Below are positions 1,422 through 33,160 of a stretch of 64,000 nt of DNA, piece by piece. This DNA comes from a virus. The number at the start of each line of letters is the position of its first letter. The first letter of the stretch is position 1. The stretch spans positions 39,429 to 103,428 of the IMG/VR virus record IMGVR_UViG_3300048798_000032, one strand, 5' to 3'. Under the pieces are notes generated by a model. It saw only the letters and a list, made by a program, of their open reading frames with translations. It was not told where the DNA came from and did no database searches. The position numbers and the translations under genes were made by a program.

Positions 1422-1539
1422 AGAAAGCCCTTCCCGTTGCTGCGGGTTTGACCATTCTGGCCGCCATTTTCGCACGTTCCGGCTATCGCTGGGCATTGCG
1501 CCATGACTGTCTTGGCTGCGAATTGTGGAATGGTGCGGC

Positions 1540-3210
1540 ATGACCCCTCTTAATTCCCATTCACCCGGCCGGGTAGCTGGGGAAGGGTACCCGGCCGGTG
1601 GAGGGCCCGGCGTCAACCTGGATCTGTTCGGCGGCCCTGGTGGGTGGGCCGAGGCCCTGGCCGCGCTCGGCCTGACTGAGATCGGGATCGAGCTCGACGC
1701 GGCAGCGTGCGCGACCCGCCGGGCCGCAGGCCACCTAACGATCCGGGCCAGCGTCGCGGCCTTCCCGGTTGAGCAGCTCGCCGGGCGCGTGCGCGGGCTA
1801 GCAGGCAGTCCCCCTTGCACCACTTTTTCGCAGGCTGGCCTTGGTGCGGGTGTCAGGGTCATGGAGATCCTCGCTCTGGCCATCCGTGACGCGCTCGCTG
1901 GCCGCAAGACAAGGGCGCGGCGGATGCGGGAGATGGCCCGTGCGCTCCGTGCCGCCTGGTGGACCGACGCGAAAGTCAAACTCGATGCTCGGCTCACCCG
2001 CGCGGAACGGTCGGCGCGCATCTGGAAGGCCGTCAGGTCGGCCGCCCTGGTCATCGAGCCCGCGCGGTACATCCACGCGTGCCGTCCCGAGTGGATAGCG
2101 CTGGAGCAGGTTCCCGCCGTCCTGCCGCTGTGGCAGGCGTACGCCACCGAACTCCGCAAGCTGGGCTACTCGGTATGGGTGGGCAAGCTCAACGCCGCAG
2201 ATTTTGGTGTGCCGCAGACCCGCGTCAGGGCCATCCTCATCGCCAGCCGGGTACGGAAGGTCACGGTGCCGGAGCCGACCCACTACGACCCGCGCAAGGG
2301 TGATCAGCTCTGGGGTGAGCACTGGGTCAGCATGGCCGAGGCGCTCGGCATAGGCGCGACCGGCCGCCCGGCACCCTCCGTGACCGCCGGTGGAACGTCT
2401 ACCGGGGGTGCCGAGCCGTTCGCCCGCGGTGGCCGGGGCGCGCTCGAGGCCGAGCGGGACGCCGGCCGGTGGGTGCTGCGGATGGACACCCAGGCGCACG
2501 CGTCCGTCCGTGACGTGACAGCGCCAGCGCCAGCGCTGAAGATTGGCCATTCTGCTGCGGATTGTCAATGGGTGCTGCTGCACACCAACCGTGACCAGCG
2601 TCCCGATGGCACCCGGCAGACCGCAGACCCGCATACCGCGCCCGCGCCCGCGCCCGCGCTGACGAGCAAATCGGGTGGCCAGTGGGAACTGCACCGCAGC
2701 AGGGGCGCGAGTGTCAGCCGCCGCGACCATCCCGCCGATGAGCCAGCACCAACGATTACCGGCGCTGGCGGCAAGCCTGGCGGCAACCTGACGTGGAAAC
2801 TCCGCAACAACAACAACAACAACAACGCGTGTGAACGGTCAACCGATGAACCGGCTGGGACGTTGTTCTTTGGCCAGCGGTCCAACTGGGCGGCATGGGT
2901 GACCGAGCGCCCGGCAACGACCGTTCAGGGCGACCCGCGGATCGGCCGGCCGGGGCACAAGGGCCCCGAGTCCGGTGGCGAGTCACAGTTCGCCGTGGAC
3001 TCCGTCCGCATCACGGTCACCGAGGCTGCGGTACTCCAGTCGTTCAGGCCGGACTATCCGTTCCAGGGGACTAAGTCGGCGCGGTTCCGGCAAGTGGGCG
3101 ACGCCTGGTGCCCGCTGGCGGCTATCGCTGTGGTCGGCGTGGCTACCGGTATCGACTGGCGCCCGGTCGCTGAGAAGTACACCGAGTCGTGCCGGGAGCA
3201 GGCCGCATGA
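1540..3210 (+). CDS. DNA cytosine-5 methyltransferase with expanded, repetitive variable region
   Basis: motif I DLFGGPGG, motif IV GSPPC, motif VI EQV, motif VIII QTRVR, C-terminal RQVGDA; start uncertain (1525 or 1540). Confidence 0.9.
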   Translation: MTPLNSHSPGRVAGEGYPAGGGPGVNLDLFGGPGGWAEALAALGLTEIGIELDAAACATRRAAGHLTIRASVAAFPVEQLAGRVRGLAGSPPCTTFSQAGLGAGVRVMEILALAIRDALAGRKTRARRMREMARALRAAWWTDAKVKLDARLTRAERSARIWKAVRSAALVIEPARYIHACRPEWIALEQVPAVLPLWQAYATELRKLGYSVWVGKLNAADFGVPQTRVRAILIASRVRKVTVPEPTHYDPRKGDQLWGEHWVSMAEALGIGATGRPAPSVTAGGTSTGGAEPFARGGRGALEAERDAGRWVLRMDTQAHASVRDVTAPAPALKIGHSAADCQWVLLHTNRDQRPDGTRQTADPHTAPAPAPALTSKSGGQWELHRSRGASVSRRDHPADEPAPTITGAGGKPGGNLTWKLRNNNNNNNACERSTDEPAGTLFFGQRSNWAAWVTERPATTVQGDPRIGRPGHKGPESGGESQFAVDSVRITVTEAAVLQSFRPDYPFQGTKSARFRQVGDAWCPLAAIAVVGVATGIDWRPVAEKYTESCREQAA

Positions 3211-3266
3211 ACAATCCCATCCCTCTATCCCCTCTAAGAGCAAAGCTCAGCGAGGAGGGGAGAGGG

Positions 3267-3470
3267 TCAGGAGTCGGCGGAGACCTTCTCGAACTCAGCC
3301 TGATAGCGGCGCACCTGCTCGCGGGTCAGCTTGAGCGTGGCCGCGATGTCGGCCTGCGTGATGTCGCTGCCGCGGGCCTCCACGATGGCGCGGCCGAGCG
3401 CGAGCCGGGTCTCTCTCACCTGCTCGCGGGCGGCCAGATAGGCGTCTCGCGCAGCAACGACGTTGGCCAT
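3267..3470 (-). CDS. small HTH regulator divergent from the pentamer-array locus
   Basis: ITQADIAATLKLTREQVRRY HTH; GGAAGG upstream of the ATG at 3470. Confidence 0.75.
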   Translation of the reverse strand: MANVVAARDAYLAAREQVRETRLALGRAIVEARGSDITQADIAATLKLTREQVRRYQAEFEKVSADS

Positions 3471-3540
3471 GGCACCGGTCACCTTCCGATTGTCACATGG
3501 ATGTGGCCTAGGGCAAGTATGCAACATAGACGGGTGCCAC

Positions 3541-3577
3541 GCAACATGTTGCACTGCCACATACTGTGTGGCATAGT
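3541..3577 (+). promoter_or_regulatory. sigma70-type promoter with palindromic operators upstream of the pentamer array
   Basis: TTGCAC(3549)-N17-CATAGT(3572); perfect palindrome GCAACATGTTGC 3541-3552; near-palindrome TGCCACATACTGTGTGGCA 3555-3573. Confidence 0.55.
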
Positions 3578-3589
3578 CGGGACCAGCGT

Positions 3590-3941
3590 GGCGAGGCCCG
3601 GCGGTGCGGGGCATGACCGGTCGCGGCTATGGCTAGCCCGGGTTGGGCGAGGCATGGATTCACCAGGGCGGATGGCATACAGCCGGGTTCGGGTCCCGGT
3701 CGCCCACGCTGGGCTTGGCAGGCCAGTGGCATCGCTGGCCCCGGCATGGTTCGGCTGGGCGCGTCATGGCTCGCCAAGGCCGGGCTAGGCAAGGAACTAC
3801 GGCCGACAGGAAGGCACTGGGGTTCGAGCCCTCAGCGGTCACGCAGGGTGCGGCAGGGCAGTGCCAGGCAGGCCCCGGCGCGGCTCGTTATGGCTGGGCA
3901 CGGCAGAACCCGGCTTGGTATGGCCCGGCAAGGCAAGGACG
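3590..3941 (+). ncRNA. GGY-NN pentamer array part 1: tracts 3590-3660, 3710-3797, 3845-3941, separated by tRNA-like hairpins 3666-3709 and 3801-3844
   Basis: tract 3 has 18 pentamers in perfect register from 3847 (14/18 begin GGY, 18/18 have a pyrimidine at position 3); separators have a 5-bp stem plus a T-arm. Confidence 0.8.
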
Positions 3942-3958
3942 CAACGAAAGGGAGAGCG

Positions 3959-4531
3959 ATGGACTTCCGGATCACGATCAAGGGCACGGACAGCTTGCTG
4001 ATGCACAATGCGCGGCTGGCCAATCCGCTCGACCCGGCCGCGAAAGCGGTCAAGAAGCTCACGGGCAAGCGGAACAAGACCGATGACGACTACGAGGAAC
4101 TCGCCCACGTTGAGTGGCAGGGGTCGTTCTACTTCGATCCCGACGTCGGCCCGTTCATCCCCGGCGACAACATCTGGCGTTCGCTCTATGACGCGGCCAA
4201 GAAGCACAAGAAGGGCCCGCGCATCAAGGAAGGCGTGTTCATCGCCACCAGCATCAACCCGATCGCCTATGCGGGTGCGCGCAGCCTGGACGCGCTGTGG
4301 GCTGACGAGAACTTCAAGCACTTCGCCTCGGTGAAAGTCGGCACGGCGCGGACCTCCCGCTGCCGCCCGATGTTCCGCCAGTGGAAGGTCGCAGCCGATG
4401 GCGTGCTGGACACGAATGTCATGGACCTAGCCGAACTCCAGCAGGTTGCCGAGACGGCCGGCTCACTGATCGGGCTAGGGGACTGGCGCCCGCGGTACGG
4501 CCGGTATGTGGCCGAGGTGGAGAAGGTCTAG
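3959..4531 (+). CDS. stand-alone Cas7/RAMP-like protein (Vipr-like), 190 aa
   Basis: RBS AAAGGGAGAG; N-terminal strand ITIKGTDSLLMHN, PFIPGDNIWRSLYDAA, RCRPMF, C-terminal Gly-rich loop AGSLIGLGDWRPRYGRY; flanked by pentamer arrays. Confidence 0.7.
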   Translation: MDFRITIKGTDSLLMHNARLANPLDPAAKAVKKLTGKRNKTDDDYEELAHVEWQGSFYFDPDVGPFIPGDNIWRSLYDAAKKHKKGPRIKEGVFIATSINPIAYAGARSLDALWADENFKHFASVKVGTARTSRCRPMFRQWKVAADGVLDTNVMDLAELQQVAETAGSLIGLGDWRPRYGRYVAEVEKV

Positions 4532-4536
4532 GTCTC

Positions 4537-4830
4537 ACCTGGGCGTGGCGGGGCGGCGCAAGGCAATCCCAGGCTTCGCGGGGCGTGGCCGGACAGTGCA
4601 CTCCTGGCCAAGGCAGCACCAGGGCTTGACAGGGCATTCAGGGTGACCGGCAGGCATCAGGGTTCAAGCCCCTGACACCCGCGCAGGGTGCGGCTTGCCT
4701 GGGCGAGTCGGGCCTGGGCGCGGCCATGCGAGACCGGTCACGGCCGGGCAGTACCTGGCTAGCCGAGGCAAGGAAGGGCGACATGGCAGACATCAGGGTC
4801 CGAGTCCCTGACGCCCACGCTAGGCATGGA
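4537..4830 (+). ncRNA. GGY-NN pentamer array part 2: tracts 4537-4637 and 4685-4775, separators 4641-4684 and 4776-4820
   Basis: tract 5 has 17 in-register pentamers, all with Y at position 3; separator spacing is 135 nt, the same as in part 1. Confidence 0.8.
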
Positions 4831-4854
4831 TACGCAAGACGGAAGGAATCAGGA

Positions 4855-5415
4855 ATGGCAGACAGGGCACCATTCGAGCCCATCGGAGAACAAGCCCGGT
4901 GGCGCGTGATCTATGAGGCACTGAAAGACGTCCCAGTGGGCGAGACGATTACCTACGAGCGTCTCGGGACTGTTCTCGATCTTGACCCGAAGGACGACCG
5001 GAGCGTCATTCAGCAGGCCATGCACCGCGCAGCCTACGAGTTGGAGACGCAGGACAAGCACGCGGTCGACTCGGTGCGCGGCATTGGCTACCGCGTCGTA
5101 GAGCCTGTAGAGCACATGGGCCTAGCGGTCAGGCAGCAGAAGCGTTCCCGCAGGGCCTTGGAGCGCGGCCAGTCCAAGGTTGTCAACGTGGACCTCACTG
5201 GCATGGAACCGGAAATCCGCAAGGCGTTTGAGGTGCTAGCGACCGGGTTCGCACTTCAGGCCGACTTTAACCGCCGCATCGAGAACCGGCAGGCGCGACT
5301 GGACCGGGCACTGCGTGAGATCAGCGACACGCAGGACACCGACCGCAAGCACAGCGACGAGGAGATCACCGAACTCCGCGAACGGCTGGCGCGGCTTGAA
5401 GCGGGCACTACCTGA
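4855..5415 (+). CDS. winged-helix plus coiled-coil protein within the array locus
   Basis: GETITYERL...VRGIGYRVV wing motif, C-terminal heptad helix; the ORF-track extension to 4726 runs through the RNA array. Confidence 0.65.
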   Translation: MADRAPFEPIGEQARWRVIYEALKDVPVGETITYERLGTVLDLDPKDDRSVIQQAMHRAAYELETQDKHAVDSVRGIGYRVVEPVEHMGLAVRQQKRSRRALERGQSKVVNVDLTGMEPEIRKAFEVLATGFALQADFNRRIENRQARLDRALREISDTQDTDRKHSDEEITELRERLARLEAGTT

Positions 5416-5424
5416 GTCTTCTGG

Positions 5425-5479
5425 GGCAACGCGTGGCTGGGCACAGCTAGGCGAGTCCAGGCGTGGCGCGGCATGGCAA
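5425..5479 (+). repeat. sixth GGY-NN pentamer tract (11 units)
   Basis: GGCAA CGCGT GGCTG GGCAC AGCTA GGCGA GTCCA GGCGT GGCGC GGCAT GGCAA. Confidence 0.75.
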
Positions 5480-5503
5480 CTACAAGCGGGAAGGTGGCCT
5501 TAG

Positions 5504-6466
5504 TTGGCCCGCATCCGGAGCATCAAGCCCGAGGCGTTCACGTCAGAAACGCTGGCCAGCCGCCATGTTCATGCGCGGTGGACGTTTGCCGGGCTGTGGT
5601 GCTACGTGGATGACGAGGGTCGCGGGCTGGCGAATCCCGGTCTTATCAAGGCTGCCGTTTGGCCGCTAGATGACGACATTTCAGTAACCCAGGTGGGCGC
5701 ATTTCTGGATGACCTTGAAGCCGCCTATGTGATCTGCCGCTACGAAGTTGACGGTAAGCGATACCTGCATGTCGTCAACTTCGGGGAGCACCAGCACCCG
5801 AACCGGCCGCTCCCCAGTAAGTTGCCCGCCTGCTCACGGAGGACTCACGGAGGACTCAGTGAGCAGGCAGTACGCACTCATCCGGAAGGCCCTGGCGGTG
5901 CTCCTGGCACCCCGGCGGCATCTTCTGAGGCCACGACCACCGAAACCGGGATCCAGGGCGACATAGGCGCAGGTCAAGACCCACTCACTGAGGACTCAGT
6001 GAGTGGTCACGGAGTTGTTAATCCAAAGCCGTCCGGTACCCCTCCTACTCCTCTCCGTTACGAACAAGGAGAAGGAGATGGAGGGGGAGATGGAGTTCAG
6101 CAGGCTACGCCTGCTGCCGCGAAGGACTCGCGGCAGCTCACGGTCACGCAGCGCTCAAAAAGGCTTACCGACGCCTATGCCGAAGCCGAGCCGATGTGCA
6201 AGTGGCCGGCCGTGAACACCGCCGTCATCCGGGCAATCAAAACCGAGAAGTACGCCGACGAGGAAATCCGCGACGCCCTGCTGCGAATGGCCAAGGACGG
6301 CACGGGCGTGACCATTGAGTCGCTGCGGGTCGAGCTGGCCGGCTTCGGCAAGCGTGGCTCTGGCCAGCAGTCCGCTACAAGCCAATCCACGGGGGCCGAC
6401 CGTGCCCGTGCTGCCCGTGAGGCGGGCCAGCGTGTTCAGGCAATGCTCGAAGGAGGGAACCGGTGA
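5504..6466 (+). CDS. phage replication initiator / replisome organizer
   Basis: MARIRSIKPEAF..LWCYVDDEGRG..YLHVVNFGEHQHPNRP N-terminus followed by a low-complexity linker. Confidence 0.7.
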   Translation: MARIRSIKPEAFTSETLASRHVHARWTFAGLWCYVDDEGRGLANPGLIKAAVWPLDDDISVTQVGAFLDDLEAAYVICRYEVDGKRYLHVVNFGEHQHPNRPLPSKLPACSRRTHGGLSEQAVRTHPEGPGGAPGTPAASSEATTTETGIQGDIGAGQDPLTEDSVSGHGVVNPKPSGTPPTPLRYEQGEGDGGGDGVQQATPAAAKDSRQLTVTQRSKRLTDAYAEAEPMCKWPAVNTAVIRAIKTEKYADEEIRDALLRMAKDGTGVTIESLRVELAGFGKRGSGQQSATSQSTGADRARAAREAGQRVQAMLEGGNR

Positions 6467-6957: not shown

Positions 6958-7366
6958 CCGAGGCCGAGGTCCGCGAGCTGCTGAACGTCTGCGGCGAGTA
7001 CGACGGCACCGAGTACGGGGAACCCGCGGTGGTGTTCTGGGCTGAGGCCCCGGACTGCCGGTGGCTGCCGAACCTGGCCTGCGACGAGGCTCCCGCCGCA
7101 GCAAAGATCGCGAGCCTGCTCCTCGGTGATCGGCGTCCCAAGAATCCCGCCGCGTACTGCCGCAAAGCCATCCAGAGCGACCCTGATCCGGTAGCCCGGT
7201 TCGCCATCCCGCCGCTGGCATGGCCGCCCTGGTGCGGCGAGTGCGATGAGCGCGACCGGACCCGCGAGACCGAACCGCGGCCCGGTGCCGTAGTCACCGT
7301 CGAACGGTGCCCGAACTGCCACCCCCTGCGAGACGCAGACCCCAACCCTCCACGAGGAGCAACGGC

Positions 7367-7370
<4 letters not shown>
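6954..7370 (+). CDS. hypothetical protein with C-terminal Zn finger
   Basis: WCGECD..RCPNCHP; coupled to neighbours. Confidence 0.6.
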
Positions 7371-8292
<922 letters not shown>

Positions 8293-8296
<4 letters not shown>

Positions 8297-23278: not shown

Positions 23279-23387
23279 CCATCTTGCCGGGCAGTACAGC
23301 AAGCAAGACGCTTACGGAGCACTACAGGAAGCGGCATGACGGTTAATTGCGTTGCCCGATCAGCCCCGAAGATGGAGAGTCCTGAAC

Positions 23388-25487
23388 ATGGAAATGCTGA
23401 CCAAGCACCTGATGAACTGGGCGTCGATCCTGGAGCCGAACACTCTGGAGCAGGCGCGGCGCACCTCCGAGATGCCGTTCATCCATCCTTGGGTGGCATT
23501 GATGCCAGACGCCCATCTCGGCAAGGGCTCCACGGTCGGCTCCGTCATCCCCACCCTCGGCGCGATCATGCCCGCGGCGGTCGGGGTCGACATCGGCTGC
23601 GTAGACGCTCAGAGCGAGTACCTGTCACCGTCTGGCTGGCGCAAGATCAGTGAGTACCGCGGCGGTCCCGTCATGCAGTACGAACCGCTCACCGGACTAG
23701 CCCGGTTCGTAGAGCCGTCGGCCTACATCGTGAAGGCGTGCGAGGAGTTCTACCAGCTTAAGACCAAATACGGCATCGACCAGATGCTGTCCGCCGATCA
23801 TCGCGTCCTCTGCTGGAAGATCACGGGCCGCGCTAGGTGCCGGGTCATGATGGTGATCCCCGCCGCTGATTTCGCGGCTGAGCACGCTCGACTGAGGCAG
23901 GGATTCAAGGCGGAGTTCAAGACTACGTTCACGCCGGACTTGGATACCAAAGTCGATCTGAGTGATGCGCAGATTCGGGTGCAGGTCATGGCAAACGCCG
24001 ACAGCACCTTGAATCACGGGGCAGCCGTCCTTCATCTCCAGAAGGAACGCAAGATCACGCGCGCCCGGCAACTCCTCGCTGATGCCGGTATCGCCTGGAC
24101 AGAAAACGCCAACCGGGACGGCACCGCGACCATCCGGTTCCACGCGCCGATCGCGGAGAAGTCCTACGAGCCATTCTGGGAAGCGTCGGCCGCGCAACTT
24201 GCGGTGATCGCGGAGGAATGCTTGCTCTGGGATGGCAATCTGGATGACCGCTGCTTCTACACCAGAACCCGCGCCGAAGCCGACTTCATCCAGTACGCGT
24301 TCACGGCCTGCGGCTACCGCGCCGTGCTCCGCTCGGATGACCACTACCGGGATGGACAGCCCGACTACCGCGTGTTTGCCAACACCAACACCATGATCAG
24401 CATGAGTGGTGTTCCCAAAACCGAGATCACCACAGAGCCAAGCCCCGACGGCTACGCCTACTGTTTCACCGTCCCGTCGGGCTTCTGGGTGATGCGCAGG
24501 GGTGGCAACGTGGCCATGACCGGCAACTGCGGTATGCATGCCGTTCAGACGAGCCTGACTGCGGCCGACGTCCGCAAGCAGGGCGACCTGGCCGCGCTCC
24601 GTGAGGCGATCGAGGGCGCGATACCGCTGTCGGCAGGCAAGTACAACGAATCCGTCTACGACCCCGAGACCGACGAGCGCATAGCGGAGCTGGAGCAGAA
24701 AGACGGTGCAGCGAGCGCGGAGCAGATAGCGCCGAACTGGCGGCTTCAGCTCGGTTCCCTCGGTTCGGGTAACCACTTCATCGAGGTCAGTCTTGACGAG
24801 CATGGATCTGTGTGGCTGTTCCTGCACTCGGGTTCCCGTGGCGTTGGCAACAAGCTTGCCGTACGGCACATCAAGATCGCCCAGCAGCAGGCGAAGAAGT
24901 GGTGGATCGGCCTGCCTGACCCGGACTTGGCCTACCTCGTGGAAGGCACCGATGAGTTCTGGGCTTACATTCGCGACCTGCGGTGGGCACAGCATTTCGC
25001 TCTGCTGAACCGGCAGGAGATGATGCACCGCGTCATGCTCTGCGTGGATGCCTGGTACGGGCACCCGATCACCGGTCTCCAGGTAGTGCAGTGTCACCAC
25101 AACTACACCGAGCGCGAGAAGCATTTCGGCAAGGATGTCTGGCTCAGCCGTAAGGGCGCGATCGACGCGAGTGACGGCAAGCTCGGCCTCATCCCCGGCT
25201 CGATGGGCACGCGCTCCTATGTGGTCCGGGGGAAGGGCAACCGCCAGTCGCTCAACTCCTCGCCACACGGTGCCGGGCGCCAGCATTCACGTTCGGCCGC
25301 CCGCAGGACGTTCACCCGTGCCGAGCTGGACGCCGCGATGGAAGGTATCGAGTGGGGCCGCTCAGATGCGTTCCTGGACGAGATTCCCGGGGCCTACAAG
25401 GACGTTGACGTGGTGATGGCCGACGCCGCAGACCTCGTTGAGCCAATCCACACGCTGCGGCAGATCGTAAACGTGAAGGGCGATTGA
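23388..25487 (+). CDS. rtcB: RtcB RNA ligase containing an intein
   Basis: MPDAHLGKG, AVGVDIG/CG, LGSLGSGNHF, LHSGSRG, CHHNY, SRKGA, IPGSMG, HGAGR, DEIPGAYKD. Confidence 0.95.
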   Translation: MEMLTKHLMNWASILEPNTLEQARRTSEMPFIHPWVALMPDAHLGKGSTVGSVIPTLGAIMPAAVGVDIGCVDAQSEYLSPSGWRKISEYRGGPVMQYEPLTGLARFVEPSAYIVKACEEFYQLKTKYGIDQMLSADHRVLCWKITGRARCRVMMVIPAADFAAEHARLRQGFKAEFKTTFTPDLDTKVDLSDAQIRVQVMANADSTLNHGAAVLHLQKERKITRARQLLADAGIAWTENANRDGTATIRFHAPIAEKSYEPFWEASAAQLAVIAEECLLWDGNLDDRCFYTRTRAEADFIQYAFTACGYRAVLRSDDHYRDGQPDYRVFANTNTMISMSGVPKTEITTEPSPDGYAYCFTVPSGFWVMRRGGNVAMTGNCGMHAVQTSLTAADVRKQGDLAALREAIEGAIPLSAGKYNESVYDPETDERIAELEQKDGAASAEQIAPNWRLQLGSLGSGNHFIEVSLDEHGSVWLFLHSGSRGVGNKLAVRHIKIAQQQAKKWWIGLPDPDLAYLVEGTDEFWAYIRDLRWAQHFALLNRQEMMHRVMLCVDAWYGHPITGLQVVQCHHNYTEREKHFGKDVWLSRKGAIDASDGKLGLIPGSMGTRSYVVRGKGNRQSLNSSPHGAGRQHSRSAARRTFTRAELDAAMEGIEWGRSDAFLDEIPGAYKDVDVVMADAADLVEPIHTLRQIVNVKGD
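23598..24527 (+). mobile_element. intein (310 aa) with probable degenerate LAGLIDADG domain
   Basis: starts CVDAQSEYL, block B SADHRV, ends YCFTVPSGFWVMRRGGNVAMTGN before the extein Cys. Confidence 0.9.
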
Positions 25488-25599: not shown

Positions 25600-25673
25600 T
25601 GGGGTGTGGGGAAGTTTGGTATCCCGCGTGATTTGGGATCACGAGATCGCCGGTTCGACTCCGGTCACCCCGA
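25600..25673 (+). tRNA. tRNA-Pro(TGG), CCA not encoded
   Basis: TGGGGTG/CACCCCG acceptor stem, CGTGA-TTTGGGA-TCACG anticodon arm, GCCGG-TTCGACT-CCGGT T arm. Confidence 0.9.
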
Positions 25674-27480: not shown

Positions 27481-28011
27481 ATGACGAATGAGACACGGCA
27501 GCGTGAGCCGATACCCCCCGCGAAGCTGCGCGAGATGTACGGCGACGACCCCGAGCGCATCCTCGGCCGGCGCCTGCGGGCATTGCGGGAGGAGGCGGGC
27601 ATGACGCAAACGCAACTGGCCGATGCGATGACCCGCCAGGGCTTCCCCATGCACCAGACCATGATCGGCAAGGTGGAGGCGAACCAGCGGCCCGTCCGTG
27701 TCAACGAGGCCGCCGCGCTCGCTGGCATTCTCGGTTTCGCGCTGCCCGACCTGCTGGCCGACCCAGACCTGAACGCCGAGACATCCGCGCTGCGGGATGA
27801 ACTGCGGCAGGCGACCGCGCGGCGGCTGGACGCCGAGGCGCGATACGCGCAACTGAAAGCCGCCCTGGCCGAAGTGACCGTCAGCCTGTCGGCGGCCACC
27901 GAGGAACGCAACCGCGCCGACGAAGCAGAACGGGAAGCACGCCGCCTGTACCGGCTCGCGCGCCGCCGCTCCGCAGGCCACTCCCCCGCAGAGGACGAGG
28001 CTGATGGCTAG
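27481..28011 (+). CDS. XRE-family immunity repressor with coiled-coil tail
   Basis: LRALREEAGMTQTQLA..QTMIGKVEANQR; divergent from xis, upstream of int. Confidence 0.8.
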   Translation: MTNETRQREPIPPAKLREMYGDDPERILGRRLRALREEAGMTQTQLADAMTRQGFPMHQTMIGKVEANQRPVRVNEAAALAGILGFALPDLLADPDLNAETSALRDELRQATARRLDAEARYAQLKAALAEVTVSLSAATEERNRADEAEREARRLYRLARRRSAGHSPAEDEADG

Positions 28012-29206
28012 CATCGCCAAGCGCCCCAATGGCCGCTGGCGCGCCCGCTACCGGGACGCTGCGGGCAAGGAGCACGCCCGGCACTTTGACCGCAAGACGG
28101 ATGCCCAGAAGTGGCTGGACGCCATCACGGCCGATCTGGTCAAGGGGACCTATGTGGACCCGAAGACGGCCCGGATCACCGTGGCCCGCTGGTGCGACAC
28201 GTGGCTGGACGGGTACGGCACGCAGCGCAAATCCACCGTCAGGCAGGCCCGCGTGCATGTCCAGCGCATCAAGGCGGCATTCGGCCCGCAGCCCTTGTCC
28301 TCGGTACGGGCTTCCCAGGTGAAGTCGTGGACGTCCAGCCTCGTTGCCGAGGGCCTCGCCCCGTCCTACATCTATGCCCTGCACACCCGGCTGGCGCAGA
28401 TCATGAACGACGCCGTGATCGACGGCATCATCCCCCGCTCCCCCTGCTCGAGAAAGACCTCGCCGGGGCAAGGGGATCAGCGGCCTTACGTGGCCACCAC
28501 GGAGCAGGTGTTCGCCCTGCACGACGCGATGCCGGAACGGCTGCGCGCCGCGATCCTGCTTGGCGCGTTCGCTGGCCTGCGGTGCGCTGAGGCGTGCGGG
28601 CTGCGGGTACCGGACGTGGATTTCATGCGCGGGGTCATCAGCCCGGCCGTCCAGTTCCCGGCCGAGCCGCTCAAGAGCGACGTTTCCCGCACGCCCATCC
28701 CCATCGCACCATCGGTCACGCTGGCCCTGTCTGAGCAGGTGCGGCTGTTTCCCGGCGCAACCGTGCTTACCGGGGCGGACGGTGGCCAGCTCAGCACCTG
28801 GGCACTGGAGCGCGCTATCCGGACCTGCCGGGCCAGGGTGTACGCCTGTTCTGAATGTGAGACCGTCCAGGCCCGGCGCGGGCGCAAGTTCCGCTGCTCA
28901 TCCTGCGGGTCAGCGAACGGAACCCCTTCCCTGCCGCCAGGGTTCCGTTACCACGACCTGCGGCACTACTTCGCCAGCCTGCTCATCGCTGCCCGCGAGG
29001 ACGTGAAGAAGGTGCAGGCGAGGATGCGGCATGCTCTGGCCACGACGACACTCAACACCTACGGCCACCTGTGGCCCGATAGCGATGAGACCAGCCGGGT
29101 AGCCGTGGAAGCCGTCTTCGAGGGGCGCCGCCGGGGTCCGGGCGGACCTTCTGAGGACAGCAGTGATCATCCGTTTACATCTCCCCAGGTCAGGAAGGCA
29201 AAATGA
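28004..29206 (+). CDS. int: tyrosine integrase
   Basis: arm-binding N-terminus (RWRARYRD), AGLRCAE, HDLRHYFAS, MRHA..TLNTYGHLW. Confidence 0.95.
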   Translation: MASIAKRPNGRWRARYRDAAGKEHARHFDRKTDAQKWLDAITADLVKGTYVDPKTARITVARWCDTWLDGYGTQRKSTVRQARVHVQRIKAAFGPQPLSSVRASQVKSWTSSLVAEGLAPSYIYALHTRLAQIMNDAVIDGIIPRSPCSRKTSPGQGDQRPYVATTEQVFALHDAMPERLRAAILLGAFAGLRCAEACGLRVPDVDFMRGVISPAVQFPAEPLKSDVSRTPIPIAPSVTLALSEQVRLFPGATVLTGADGGQLSTWALERAIRTCRARVYACSECETVQARRGRKFRCSSCGSANGTPSLPPGFRYHDLRHYFASLLIAAREDVKKVQARMRHALATTTLNTYGHLWPDSDETSRVAVEAVFEGRRRGPGGPSEDSSDHPFTSPQVRKAK

Positions 29207-31428: not shown

Positions 31429-31543
31429 CGTGCCCGGTGCGCAGGCGAGGGTTACTTCCTGACTGTTAATCAGGGTCTGACGGTTCGATTCCGTCGCAGG
31501 GTGGCCCCGTCCCGTACCCCTCACCGACTTGATCTCGGGCACG
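31429..31543 (+). ncRNA. Y-RNA-like unit 5 with tRNA-Asn(GTT) anticodon arm and T arm
   Basis: CCTGA-CTGTTAA-TCAGG, 4-nt variable loop, GACGG-TTCGATT-CCGTC; CGTGCCCG/CGGGCACG stem. Confidence 0.8.
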
Positions 31544-31551
31544 ACTAAACG

Positions 31552-31581
31552 AAGCTCCTCCCGCATGCGAGAGGAGCTTTT
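31552..31581 (+). terminator. terminator-like hairpin that overlaps the Ro60 RBS
   Basis: AAGCTCCTC..GAGGAGCTT then TT, directly before GTG 31583. Confidence 0.6.
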
Positions 31582-31582
31582 C

Positions 31583-33160
31583 GTGTCCCGCTTCAATACC
31601 TCCACGGCGCGAGTGCAGCCGCGCAGCCCGGTCACGTCGGAGACTGCCCCGTCTGGCCTGACCCACGAGGGCGCGCCGGGTTACGCCCGCGAAGCCAAGT
31701 CGGAACTTTTCTTGCTCGCGGTCGCGCACATGGGCGACGGGTCGTTCTACGAGTCCGCACCCGAACGCGACCGGCGGTTCTGTGCCCTCGTCCACGGTGT
31801 CGCGATGAACGATCCCGAGTGGATCGGCCAGTTCATCCCGTGGCTCCGCAACGAGGCCAACATGCGCACGGTGTCGGTGGTCGCGGCGGCCGAGGCGGCA
31901 TGGGCACTCCTGACGGACGAGAAGCCGGGCGGCCGGCAAGTCATCGCGTCCGCACTCCAGCGCGCCGACGAGCCGGGCGAACTGCTCGCCTACTGGCACT
32001 CCCGTCACGGCCGGGTGGTGCCGAAGCCGGTCAAGCGCGGTCTCGCCGACGCGATTCAGCGGCTCTACACGGAGTACGTGCTGATGAAATATGACACGGC
32101 CAGCCACGGTTACCGGTTCGCCGACGTGATCGAGCTCGTCCACCCGGTCGCGGCCGAGGCGTGGCGGGGCGACCTGTTCAAGTACGCGATCGACCGGCGC
32201 CACAACCGTGACGGCGACGCTCCCGAGTCGCTGCGCATGGTGCGCGCGAACGCGGCCCTGCGCAGGATCGCCGCCAGCACCCCGGCAACTCTGCTGGACG
32301 CCGAGGCACTCAAGGCCGCGGGTATGACGTGGGAGGACGCACTGTTGCTCGCGGGTGGCAGTGTGAGCAAGCGGGACCTGTGGACGGCCATGATCCCGTC
32401 GATGGGCATCTTCGCCCTGGTGCGGAACCTGCGCAACTTCGATGAGGCAGGCGTCACCGACGACACGGCGGCCCAGGTCACGGCAAAGCTCACGGACGCC
32501 GAGGTCATTGCCAAGTCGCGGATGTTCCCGTTCCGGTTCCTCGCCGCCTACCGGGCCGCGCCGTCACTGAGGTGGTCGTGGCCGCTGGAGAAGGCGCTCA
32601 ACCTGTCCCTGGCCAACGTGCCCGCACTCAGGGGGCGCACGCTCATCCTGGTGGACCGCTCGGGTTCCATGTTCGACACCGTGTCCGCCAAGTCTGGGCT
32701 GAACCGCGCCGACACGGCGGCCCTGTTCGGGTCCGCGCTGACCCGGCGTAGCGACCACGCCGACCTCGTGGAGTTCGGCACCGGCAGCCAGATGGTCCTG
32801 TCCACCGACGCGGCCCACGCGTACGGTCACGCCGAGTCGGTGCTGAAGATGGTCAGCCGGTTCGGCAGCATGGGGGGCACCAACACCGCCGAGGCCGTGC
32901 GGCGCTGGTACAGCGGGCACGACCGGGTAGTCATCCTCACCGACGAGCAGGCGTGGGGCGGCTTCAGTGGCAGCAACCCGACCATGCAGGTTCCCTCGTC
33001 GGTGCCGGTCTACACCTGGAACCTTGCGGGCTACCAGTACGGCCACGGGCCCTCGGGTGGGCAGAACCGGCATACGTTCGGGGGGCTGGAAGACAGCGCG
33101 TTCAAGATGATTCCCGCACTTGAAGCCGCGCACGACGCGCACTGGCCGTGGGAGGACTGA
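31583..33160 (+). CDS. rsr: Ro60/TROVE-domain RNA-binding protein (Rsr) with vWA domain
   Basis: THEGAPGY..KSELFLLAV..FYES, KYD..DVIELVHP, MTWE, ALVRNLRN, SRMFPFRF, vWA DRSGSM, GGT, ILTDEQ. Confidence 0.93.
   Translation: MSRFNTSTARVQPRSPVTSETAPSGLTHEGAPGYAREAKSELFLLAVAHMGDGSFYESAPERDRRFCALVHGVAMNDPEWIGQFIPWLRNEANMRTVSVVAAAEAAWALLTDEKPGGRQVIASALQRADEPGELLAYWHSRHGRVVPKPVKRGLADAIQRLYTEYVLMKYDTASHGYRFADVIELVHPVAAEAWRGDLFKYAIDRRHNRDGDAPESLRMVRANAALRRIAASTPATLLDAEALKAAGMTWEDALLLAGGSVSKRDLWTAMIPSMGIFALVRNLRNFDEAGVTDDTAAQVTAKLTDAEVIAKSRMFPFRFLAAYRAAPSLRWSWPLEKALNLSLANVPALRGRTLILVDRSGSMFDTVSAKSGLNRADTAALFGSALTRRSDHADLVEFGTGSQMVLSTDAAHAYGHAESVLKMVSRFGSMGGTNTAEAVRRWYSGHDRVVILTDEQAWGGFSGSNPTMQVPSSVPVYTWNLAGYQYGHGPSGGQNRHTFGGLEDSAFKMIPALEAAHDAHWPWED

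Follow-up and report, generated by a model that had tools for sequence, protein, structure and literature searches.

The 64,000-nt stretch of DNA analysed here (the window; positions 39,429-103,428 of IMG/VR record IMGVR_UViG_3300048798_000032) contains a compact plus-strand locus that is, in all probability, a type II-like VIPR (Viral Interference Programmable Repeat) system of a temperate peat actinophage, in which tRNA-like minihelices may serve as processing signals. VIPR systems, which are viral, resemble CRISPR and use guide RNAs to silence DNA, were first reported in 2026 (bioRxiv 10.64898/2026.04.26.720920, 10.64898/2026.04.26.720927, 10.64898/2026.10.15.759431), and the core of the locus, which consists of a vipr gene, a vap1-like accessory gene and six tracts of GGY-NN pentamers, is a further member of this known family and does not extend the concept; the tRNA-like separators between the tracts are possibly a new part of the array architecture. 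We base the VIPR identity on full-length homology to the Vipr protein of Escherichia phage SUSP1, a Cas7/Csm3-like predicted fold, conservation of the residues that bind GGY, a vap1 homologue, tracts on the same strand as vipr, and divergence of the NN positions between related loci. An initial annotation, made from the letters of the sequence, had proposed a non-CRISPR, RAMP-based RNA-guided system fitting VIPR, and this proposal is borne out by the SUSP1 homology, the fold, the vap1 homologue and the same-strand tracts.

The 103-kb record was assembled from a peat metagenome, has a GC content of 67% and a CheckV completeness estimate of 95%, and belongs to an uncultured temperate actinophage from peat. 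The locus lies between a divergent small helix-turn-helix (HTH) gene (3267-3470, minus strand) and a replication-initiator gene (5504-6466, plus strand). Its 5' half runs from tract 1 through minihelix H1, tract 2, minihelix H2 and tract 3 to the 190-aa vipr gene (3959-4531), and its 3' half from tract 4 through minihelix H3, tract 5 and minihelix H4 to the 186-aa vap1-like gene (4855-5415) and finally tract 6.

The Vipr protein

The product of vipr (3959-4531, plus strand; 190 aa) is a minimal RAMP protein with a G-loop at D175-W176-R177, and it ends in the motif GLGDWRPRYGRY, of which GLGDWRPRYG forms residues 172-181. A phmmer search of all Protein Data Bank chain sequences returned a single match, chain 36pp_D ('SUSP1 Vipr protein', E 1.8e-31), in which residues 4-187 of the query align with residues 5-189, and tblastn against phiSUSP1 gave 36% identity at E 7e-31. 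The protein also matches phrog_4652 in PHROGs (E 1.2e-55), a family whose function is unassigned there, and no Pfam family matches it. The Vipr family is large: 573 close clusters belong to it, and clustering at 50% identity gives 2387 representatives.

An AlphaFold2 model built from a 79-sequence alignment reached a pLDDT of 97.2 and a pTM of 0.90, replacing a single-sequence model that was discarded (pLDDT 34.6). In a Foldseek comparison with the Protein Data Bank, using a structural library that ends on 8 April 2026 and so predates the VIPR entries, the best matches of this model were all Csm3/Cas7 backbone subunits of type III and type VII effectors, among them 9g9g_D, 6ifl_F and 8do6_E (probability 1.0, TM-score 0.45-0.54). 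Like these subunits, Vipr has an RRM core, a G-loop and a thumb in its predicted structure and, by homology, would polymerise on its guide at a fixed period with bases flipped out. It is distinguished from 6ifl_F, 8do6_E and 9g9g_D by a sequence identity of 10-16%, a TM-score of only about 0.5 and a period of 5 nt, as opposed to 6 nt. The window also differs from a class 1 CRISPR effector in having a single RAMP gene with no CRISPR array, Cas1, Cas2, Cas5, Cas6 or large subunit, and in a guide pairing that, judged by homology, would be non-contiguous. Searches for Cas1 (PF01867) and Cas2 (PF09827) found no match in the 103-kb record, and no CRISPR-like repeat array was found in the 64-kb window. 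The initial annotation had described a 190-aa gene ending in a RAMP-type glycine loop, in a region lacking cas1/cas2 and CRISPR repeats, and had suggested comparing the fold of 3959-4531 with Cas7; the open reading frame, its terminal motif, the Csm3/Cas7 top matches of the model and the negative Cas and repeat searches all agree with that description.

The residues expected to handle the repeat are conserved. In SUSP1 Vipr, cryo-electron microscopy places H17, D177, R138, W178 and R179 in contact with G1, G2 and Y3 of the repeat, and K33, R39 and K82 in contact with DNA (10.64898/2026.04.26.720927). By alignment, identical residues occupy all of these positions in the window Vipr (H16, D175, R136, W176, R177, K32, R38 and K81), and across the actinobacterial clade they are invariant or nearly so, with the exception of K81. 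SUSP1 E71 and M72 are D and N in the window protein.

GGY-NN tracts as putative guides

The six tracts, all on the plus strand, are putative vrRNA guides. When 60-nt segments were scored for GGY in one 5-nt phase with a cut-off of at least 7 of 12, only 3721-3960, 4531-4600 and 5411-5490 on the plus strand reached it, and no segment did so on the minus strand or elsewhere in the window or the whole 103-kb contig. Of the 91 units that make up the six tracts, 86% carry G at position 1 and 76% carry G at position 2, and position 3 is a pyrimidine in all of them (C in 93%). The NN positions use all 16 dinucleotides, with an entropy of 1.96 bits at position 4 and 1.97 bits at position 5, and are richer in A and T than the genome. 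A full GGY is present in 61 units and lacking in 30. These statistics fit a fixed GGY combined with a free NN.

Tracts 3, 5 and 6 each keep a single unbroken register, 1-nt register shifts occur in tracts 1, 2 and 4, and tracts 4 and 5 are the most degenerate. Tract 1 (3590-3658) has about 13 units with one such shift and ends in GGCAT-GGA, and tract 2 (3711-3795) is irregular in its first third and then has 10 in-register units from 3743, ending in GGCAA-GGA. The clearest is tract 3 (3846-3939), with 18 units in perfect register (3847-3936), 14 of which have the full GGY; it ends in GGCAA-GGCAA-GGA and continues directly into the vipr ribosome-binding site. Tract 4 (4542-4640) has 13 in-register units followed by shifts, and tract 5 (4686-4774) has 17 in-register units (4687-4771), nine with full GGY, and the end GGCAA-GGA. 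Tract 6 (5425-5482), with 11 units and no flanking minihelix, lies directly upstream of the replication-initiator gene. The six tracts of near-constant GGY and variable NN described by the initial annotation agree with the 91-unit statistics, its NN strings for tract 3 (18 units) and tract 5 (17 units) were reproduced letter for letter, and the ends it gave for most tracts, GGCAW-GGA, are what we see, either as such or as a close variant.

It had also expected homologues to carry pentamer tracts, and nearly all of them do. In about 30 homologous loci, drawn from GTDB genomes (Planomonospora, Streptosporangium, Streptomyces and Mycobacterium), IMG/VR contigs and cultured phages, tracts flank vipr on the vipr strand in nearly every case, and calls on the opposite strand amount to two short, weak ones of six GGY units each. 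The slot directly upstream of vipr can be compared between orthologues: the window, L012 (a complete 97.8-kb viral contig whose Vipr is 74% identical to the window's) and the related locus L004 have in common a near-identical minihelix and a terminal GGCAAGGCAAGGA, and the tract between the two is 18, 12 or more than 25 units long. By our own count on the alignment, the window and L012 match at 3 of 14 non-terminal NN units, which is the chance level, and share GGC and the two terminal units. A conserved scaffold with hypervariable NN, as seen here, is the published VIPR signature.

The same evidence bears on whether the tracts work as RNA at all. They might act as DNA, as operator arrays bound by Vap or Vipr, or be coding sequence within a 300-aa open reading frame (3629-4531), as an open frame does run from 3629 through tracts 1-3 into vipr and Vap is a predicted DNA-binding protein. 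We find this barely credible. A triplet code cannot maintain a 5-nt period, and M3959 corresponds to the first residue of every homologue, each of which is about 190 aa long; the tie between tract strand and vipr strand in the roughly 30 loci fits RNA and not a DNA site, and in SUSP1 the homologous tracts have been sequenced as RNAs that Vipr binds (VIPR preprints).

The accessory gene and the type II-like arrangement

Two guide tracts set the vap1-like gene (4855-5415, plus strand) apart from vipr in the window. Its 186-aa product has a predicted winged-helix N-terminal part and a coiled-coil C-terminus, and is homologous to the product of the gene right after vipr in Gordonia phage MakoManhole, annotated as 'DNA binding protein' (E 3e-26). 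Its counterpart in Mycobacterium phage LittleE encodes a homologue too (E 4e-26), and synteny is kept in both phages. The product from the window also matches phrog_5926. Aligned by hhalign with SUSP1 vap1, a profile built from 25 members of the family reached a probability of 94.9% (E 4.7e-8) over 116 columns, with a GxGYRVVEP wing common to both. The combination of vipr and vap1 is the type II arrangement of the founding VIPR paper (10.64898/2026.04.26.720920), and 'type II-like' is our own wording, taken from this gene pair as read in the sequence and not from a placement in the published tree.

LittleE (L036:3640-4000, NC_042322.1) is a cultured cluster J mycobacteriophage in which vipr is gp34 and vap1 is gp33, and the locus lies between tail genes. 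Read by eye, its vipr and vap1 are followed by three guide tracts split by two divergent minihelices, and then by a terminator-like hairpin.

Beyond the homologous Vipr and the homologous vap1 downstream of it, the locus resembles the type II systems of SUSP1 and of a Pseudomonas fulva prophage (10.64898/2026.04.26.720920, 10.64898/2026.04.26.720927) in having GGY-NN guides upstream of vipr and downstream of the genes, in the GG(Y)-AW-GG(R) junction at the tract ends, and in being phage-borne without cas genes. It departs from them in several respects. The units in the window are GGC-rich and not GGT-rich, and the array is apparently co-transcribed, whereas SUSP1 guides are flanked by an AT-rich leader and terminator-like sequences. 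The window lacks the pseudoknot tail of SUSP1; in its place a tRNA-like minihelix, also found outside VIPR loci, stands between guides and after four of the six tracts. The host, finally, is an uncultured actinobacterium from peat.

tRNA-like minihelices between the guides

Four minihelices, H1 (3666-3709), H2 (3801-3844), H3 (4641-4684) and H4 (4776-4820), lie on the plus strand of the locus; the initial annotation does not mention them. Their consensus begins with a 5-bp outer stem and an 11-12-nt linker containing an invariant GG, continues with a 6-bp stem closed by a G-C pair and a 7-nt TTCRANN loop, and ends with the 3' strand of the outer stem, which follows without a spacer, and then a purine and CGC. 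The TTCRANN loop is a standard tRNA T-loop, and the T-arm G-TTCRANNC-C is present. From H1 to H2 (3666 to 3801) and from H3 to H4 (4641 to 4776) the start of the outer stem advances by 135 nt, which leaves a tract of about 90 nt per unit.

We aligned 32 copies, four from the window and 28 from other loci, and from them built the covariance model R1. In this alignment 98% of cells pair and both sides change in 8 of the 11 pairs; none of 500 column shuffles reaches the observed value, and sliding the 3' partner by 1-3 columns gives 37-59% pairing. The minimum-energy fold is the proposed structure in three of the four window copies (H1, H3 and H4). H1 (R1 score 60.3 bits) combines the 5-bp outer stem, the GG linker, a 6-bp T-stem, the loop region GTTCGGGTC and A-CGC. 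H2 (51.3 bits) has the outer stem GGCCG/CGGTC and is the copy with near-identical orthologues in L012 and L004; H3 (62.7 bits) is 90-95% identical to solitary copies in Streptomyces phages; and H4 (56.2 bits) has no more than a short degenerate tract between it and the ribosome-binding site of vap.

A search with R1 of the 103-kb contig and of the collected related loci and phage sequences found 53 copies, all on the gene strand, of which only H1-H4 are in the contig. Of the 42 copies that belong to VIPR loci, 25 are flanked by tracts on both sides, whereas 8 have one upstream only and 6 downstream only. The minihelix is located between guides and not uniformly before or after them.

We rejected the reading of the minihelix as a tRNA gene: it has only an acceptor-like stem, the GG linker and a T-arm, and no anticodon arm or D-stem. 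ARAGORN did not call the minihelices as tRNAs, placing tRNAs only at 25600, 25718 and 31426. Rfam gave nothing significant in 3000-6000, with no tRNA or tmRNA, and no hammerhead family at E up to 10; its sole match to the minihelix was the T-arm of mascRNA (RF01684), far below threshold.

The module also occurs outside VIPR loci, with 11 copies in Mycobacterium phage Send513 and six in Streptomyces phage BroPlease. In the stretches that we examined (L002, Send513, JF704112.1 39318-44367; L001, BroPlease, ON526970.1 40655-45696), copies sit in short gaps right after the stop codons of ordinary genes; the Send513 stretch has six strong copies, each starting a few bases after such a stop codon. 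Tracts are missing from these stretches, and a Vipr homologue is encoded nowhere in either genome. From its sequence context, the minihelix looks like a general operon-punctuation element of actinophages. The literature that we searched holds no description of it in actinophages, and neither 'tRNA' nor 'tRNA-like' was found in the text of the three VIPR preprints; the clade may already be covered in their figures or supplementary tables.

Proposed mechanism and guide maturation

For the SUSP1 homologue, cryo-electron microscopy has shown one protomer per GGY and NN pairs that together spell a gapped target (10.64898/2026.04.26.720927), the two features that the initial annotation had proposed for this locus. 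By homology, the tracts of the window would be transcribed, probably together, in a single operon with its promoter near 3560-3590, and the transcript would give rise to guide RNAs of roughly 90 nt. Each pentamer would be bound by one Vipr protomer, with GGY flipped out or sequestered and NN presented, and the NN string would read double-stranded DNA as NN-x-NN-x, skipping every third base, to form an R-loop triplex. It is plausible that this triplex would block transcription of a competing phage, satellite or prophage, an effect that Vap1 would enhance.

An acceptor/T-arm stack with an elbow-forming GG is recognised by RNase P and RNase Z, as in tRNA minihelix substrates. We propose that host RNase P would cut at the 5' side of each minihelix, with a second cut behind the discriminator by RNase Z or an enzyme like it, releasing individual guides from a polycistronic transcript, and we would give this role of the minihelices an even chance. 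It is favoured by the lack of promoter-like or terminator-like sites inside the operon (weak evidence in an actinobacterium), by the acceptor/T-arm stack with its GG, by the position between guides, and by the occurrence of the module as an independent unit in phages without Vipr. Our estimate falls slightly short of even for the broader idea that actinophage VIPR arrays are natural 'tRNA-guide' polycistrons with a mini-tRNA module of about 40 nt that also serves as general operon punctuation in actinophages.

Processing punctuated by tRNAs is familiar from engineered polycistronic tRNA-gRNA arrays. The element in the window differs from such cases in lacking an anticodon arm and a D-stem, in its length of about 40 nt, and in being bacterial or phage-borne, with cleavage as a proposal. 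It is comparable to MALAT1-mascRNA (RF01684) in that a tRNA-like fold is embedded in a longer transcript and recognition by RNase P and RNase Z would set the ends of the neighbouring RNA. Published VIPR array architectures are simple, staggered, hammerhead-interspersed or single guides (VIPR preprints). The hammerhead-interspersed vrRNA arrays of types I and V (preprint fig. S19 legend) likewise place a structured RNA between guides that could release them; in the window the Rfam search of 3000-6000 found no hammerhead at E up to 10, vipr and vap resemble those of type II, and the separator would need host enzymes and not self-cleave.

Several observations weigh against the account given here. 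In this GC-rich sequence the folding-energy z-scores of the minihelices fall short of significance, and the fold energy of the whole leader is no better than that of shuffles; support for the minihelix rests on covariation. The stacked helix is 11 bp long, as opposed to 12 bp in tRNA. Many units of tracts 4 and 5 lack a full GGY, and perturbation of GGY abolishes silencing in published work (VIPR preprints), so that some guides may be decaying. None of the six guides, for which the initial annotation had envisaged targets in competing phages, could be matched to a natural target in IMG/VR, metagenomes of the Joint Genome Institute (JGI), 401 Actinomycetes genomes or the phage itself. Finally, SUSP1 has a conserved 3' tail, a pseudoknot, that is needed for Vipr assembly, so the minihelix could itself be such a tail.

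In that event the locus would still be a VIPR system, with the minihelix as the 3' tail of the vrRNA: an attached cap that nucleates or terminates the Vipr filament, protects the 3' end and is not excised. Published vrRNAs consist of a repeat tract and an invariable structured tail, and the shared tail makes the RNA competent for Vipr assembly (VIPR preprints). The arrangement in the window is compatible with this, as the GGCAW-GGA of tracts 1, 2, 4 and 5 always has a minihelix at the same spacing behind it, and in VIPR loci 33 of the 42 copies have a tract immediately upstream. It sits less well with the copies that lie between ordinary genes in Send513 and BroPlease, with the lack of a minihelix after tracts 3 and 6 of the window, after the vipr-proximal MakoManhole tract and after the last LittleE tract, and with minihelices that no tract precedes, such as the first MakoManhole copy. 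We regard a role purely as a tail, the main rival to processing, as possible, if somewhat doubtful. Processing and tail roles can also be combined: if cleavage took place only behind the discriminator, the guide would keep a tRNA-like 3' end.

Searches for targets

Most of our target searches looked for exact matches of 9-10 units and would miss mismatched targets, the published threshold being an 80% NN match, so their negative outcome does not establish that targets are lacking; the exact patterns numbered eight and covered five of the six tracts. In IMG/VR, exact patterns with a 1-nt skip gave no matches for tract 3 units 1-10 and 7-16, tract 5 units 2-11 and 7-16, tract 6 units 1-10 or tract 4 units 1-10. 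Tract 3 units 2-16, allowing up to three mismatches, had no match in 401 sampled Actinomycetes genomes and five related records. Gapped self-matching with skips of 0-3 over the 103-kb contig found nothing above shuffled controls, and when 88 guides of related loci were compared with a small local database, the 1-nt skip was not enriched over skips of 0 or 2. Two candidate targets were rejected: tract 2 units 1-9 had one IMG/VR match, in an AT-rich contig, which failed on extension, and tract 3 units 2-11 had one match in a JGI metagenome, which extended at 3 of 14 positions; we read both as chance.

One lead comes from a related locus. The vipr-proximal guide of a Streptomyces prophage (L007:2909-2958) matches the integrase gene of the window (28004-29206) at about 29045-29074, with 18 of 20 NN positions, in frame, over the catalytic-tyrosine motif and with the skipped bases all at codon wobble positions. 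This match is suggestive of cross-phage integrase targeting, as a borderline lead from sequence with a chance expectation that we roughly estimate at 0.01-0.3.

The missing targets, together with the 30 of 91 units that lack a full GGY and the register shifts in tracts 1, 2 and 4, could be taken to mean that the locus is a decaying or non-functional VIPR remnant, in which the protein is intact and most tracts have drifted and guide nothing. We consider this improbable. Tract 3 is a clean 18-unit array, the pyrimidine at position 3 is present in 91 of 91 units, which drift would not keep, and the contact residues of Vipr are intact. Working vrRNAs, moreover, are often internally degenerate (VIPR preprints), and the phage recurs with identical sequence: three additional peat metagenome runs, all belonging to other studies, yielded contigs with pieces identical to 3480-5520. 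Contigs of four peat DNA runs contained identical pieces only, with no variant guides among them. The sequencing runs listed as containing the sequence include no RNA run, a result that is neutral as regards expression.

Genomic context

The HTH gene (3267-3470, minus strand), which encodes about 67 aa from an internal ATG and has weak Pfam HTH matches (Sigma70_r4, HTH_Crp_2), stands head-to-head with the VIPR operon and would be a candidate for its regulator. The divergent control region between the two (3471-3589) contains, as read from the sequence, the inverted repeats TGCAACAT/ATGTTGCA and GCCACA..TGTGGC. Between the HTH gene and tract 1, at 3480-3585, the repeats form two nested pairs, TGCAACAT..ATGTTGCA and GCCACATAC..GTGTGGC, which are probably operators controlling the VIPR operon. 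The control region would also hold the promoter of the operon; a sigma-70 consensus scan found no match in it.

The neighbouring genes are phage genes, including those for a C5 DNA methylase, the replication initiator, an RtcB ligase, the integrase, a Ro60-like RNA-binding protein and a tape-measure protein with a transglycosylase domain. A 711-aa open reading frame (23352-25487) joins a PhoH-like ATPase part to the RtcB RNA ligase by PHROG matches and adjoins the tRNA genes at 25600 and 25718; together with these tRNAs and the Ro60-like gene (31529-33160), it gives the phage an unusually rich set for RNA repair and RNA handling. The methylase gene (1525-3210) contains seven AAC codons in a row (2807-2827), a poly-Asn simple-sequence repeat that could vary in length. 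Within the open reading frame 7307-8296 (plus strand), a long imperfect 9/12/15-nt repeat (7862-8212) encodes about 110 residues of almost pure Ala and Thr; artefactual poly-Gly, poly-Pro and Arg/Trp-rich frames come from the opposite strands.

Implications

The find confirms that a scan of raw sequence can pick out VIPR systems. It also documents a well-populated actinobacterial and actinophage branch of VIPR, which includes metagenomic relatives in the hundreds as well as MakoManhole and LittleE, two cultured phages with laboratory hosts. In this branch Vipr, vap1 and the guide scaffold are all recognisable. LittleE offers a tractable laboratory model for it. If the minihelices are indeed cut by RNase P and RNase Z, multi-guide VIPR arrays would mature without a dedicated nuclease, which would add a third route of guide maturation to those by Cas6-type cleavage and in hammerhead-interspersed VIPR arrays, and the minihelix would be a widespread RNA-processing signal in actinophages.

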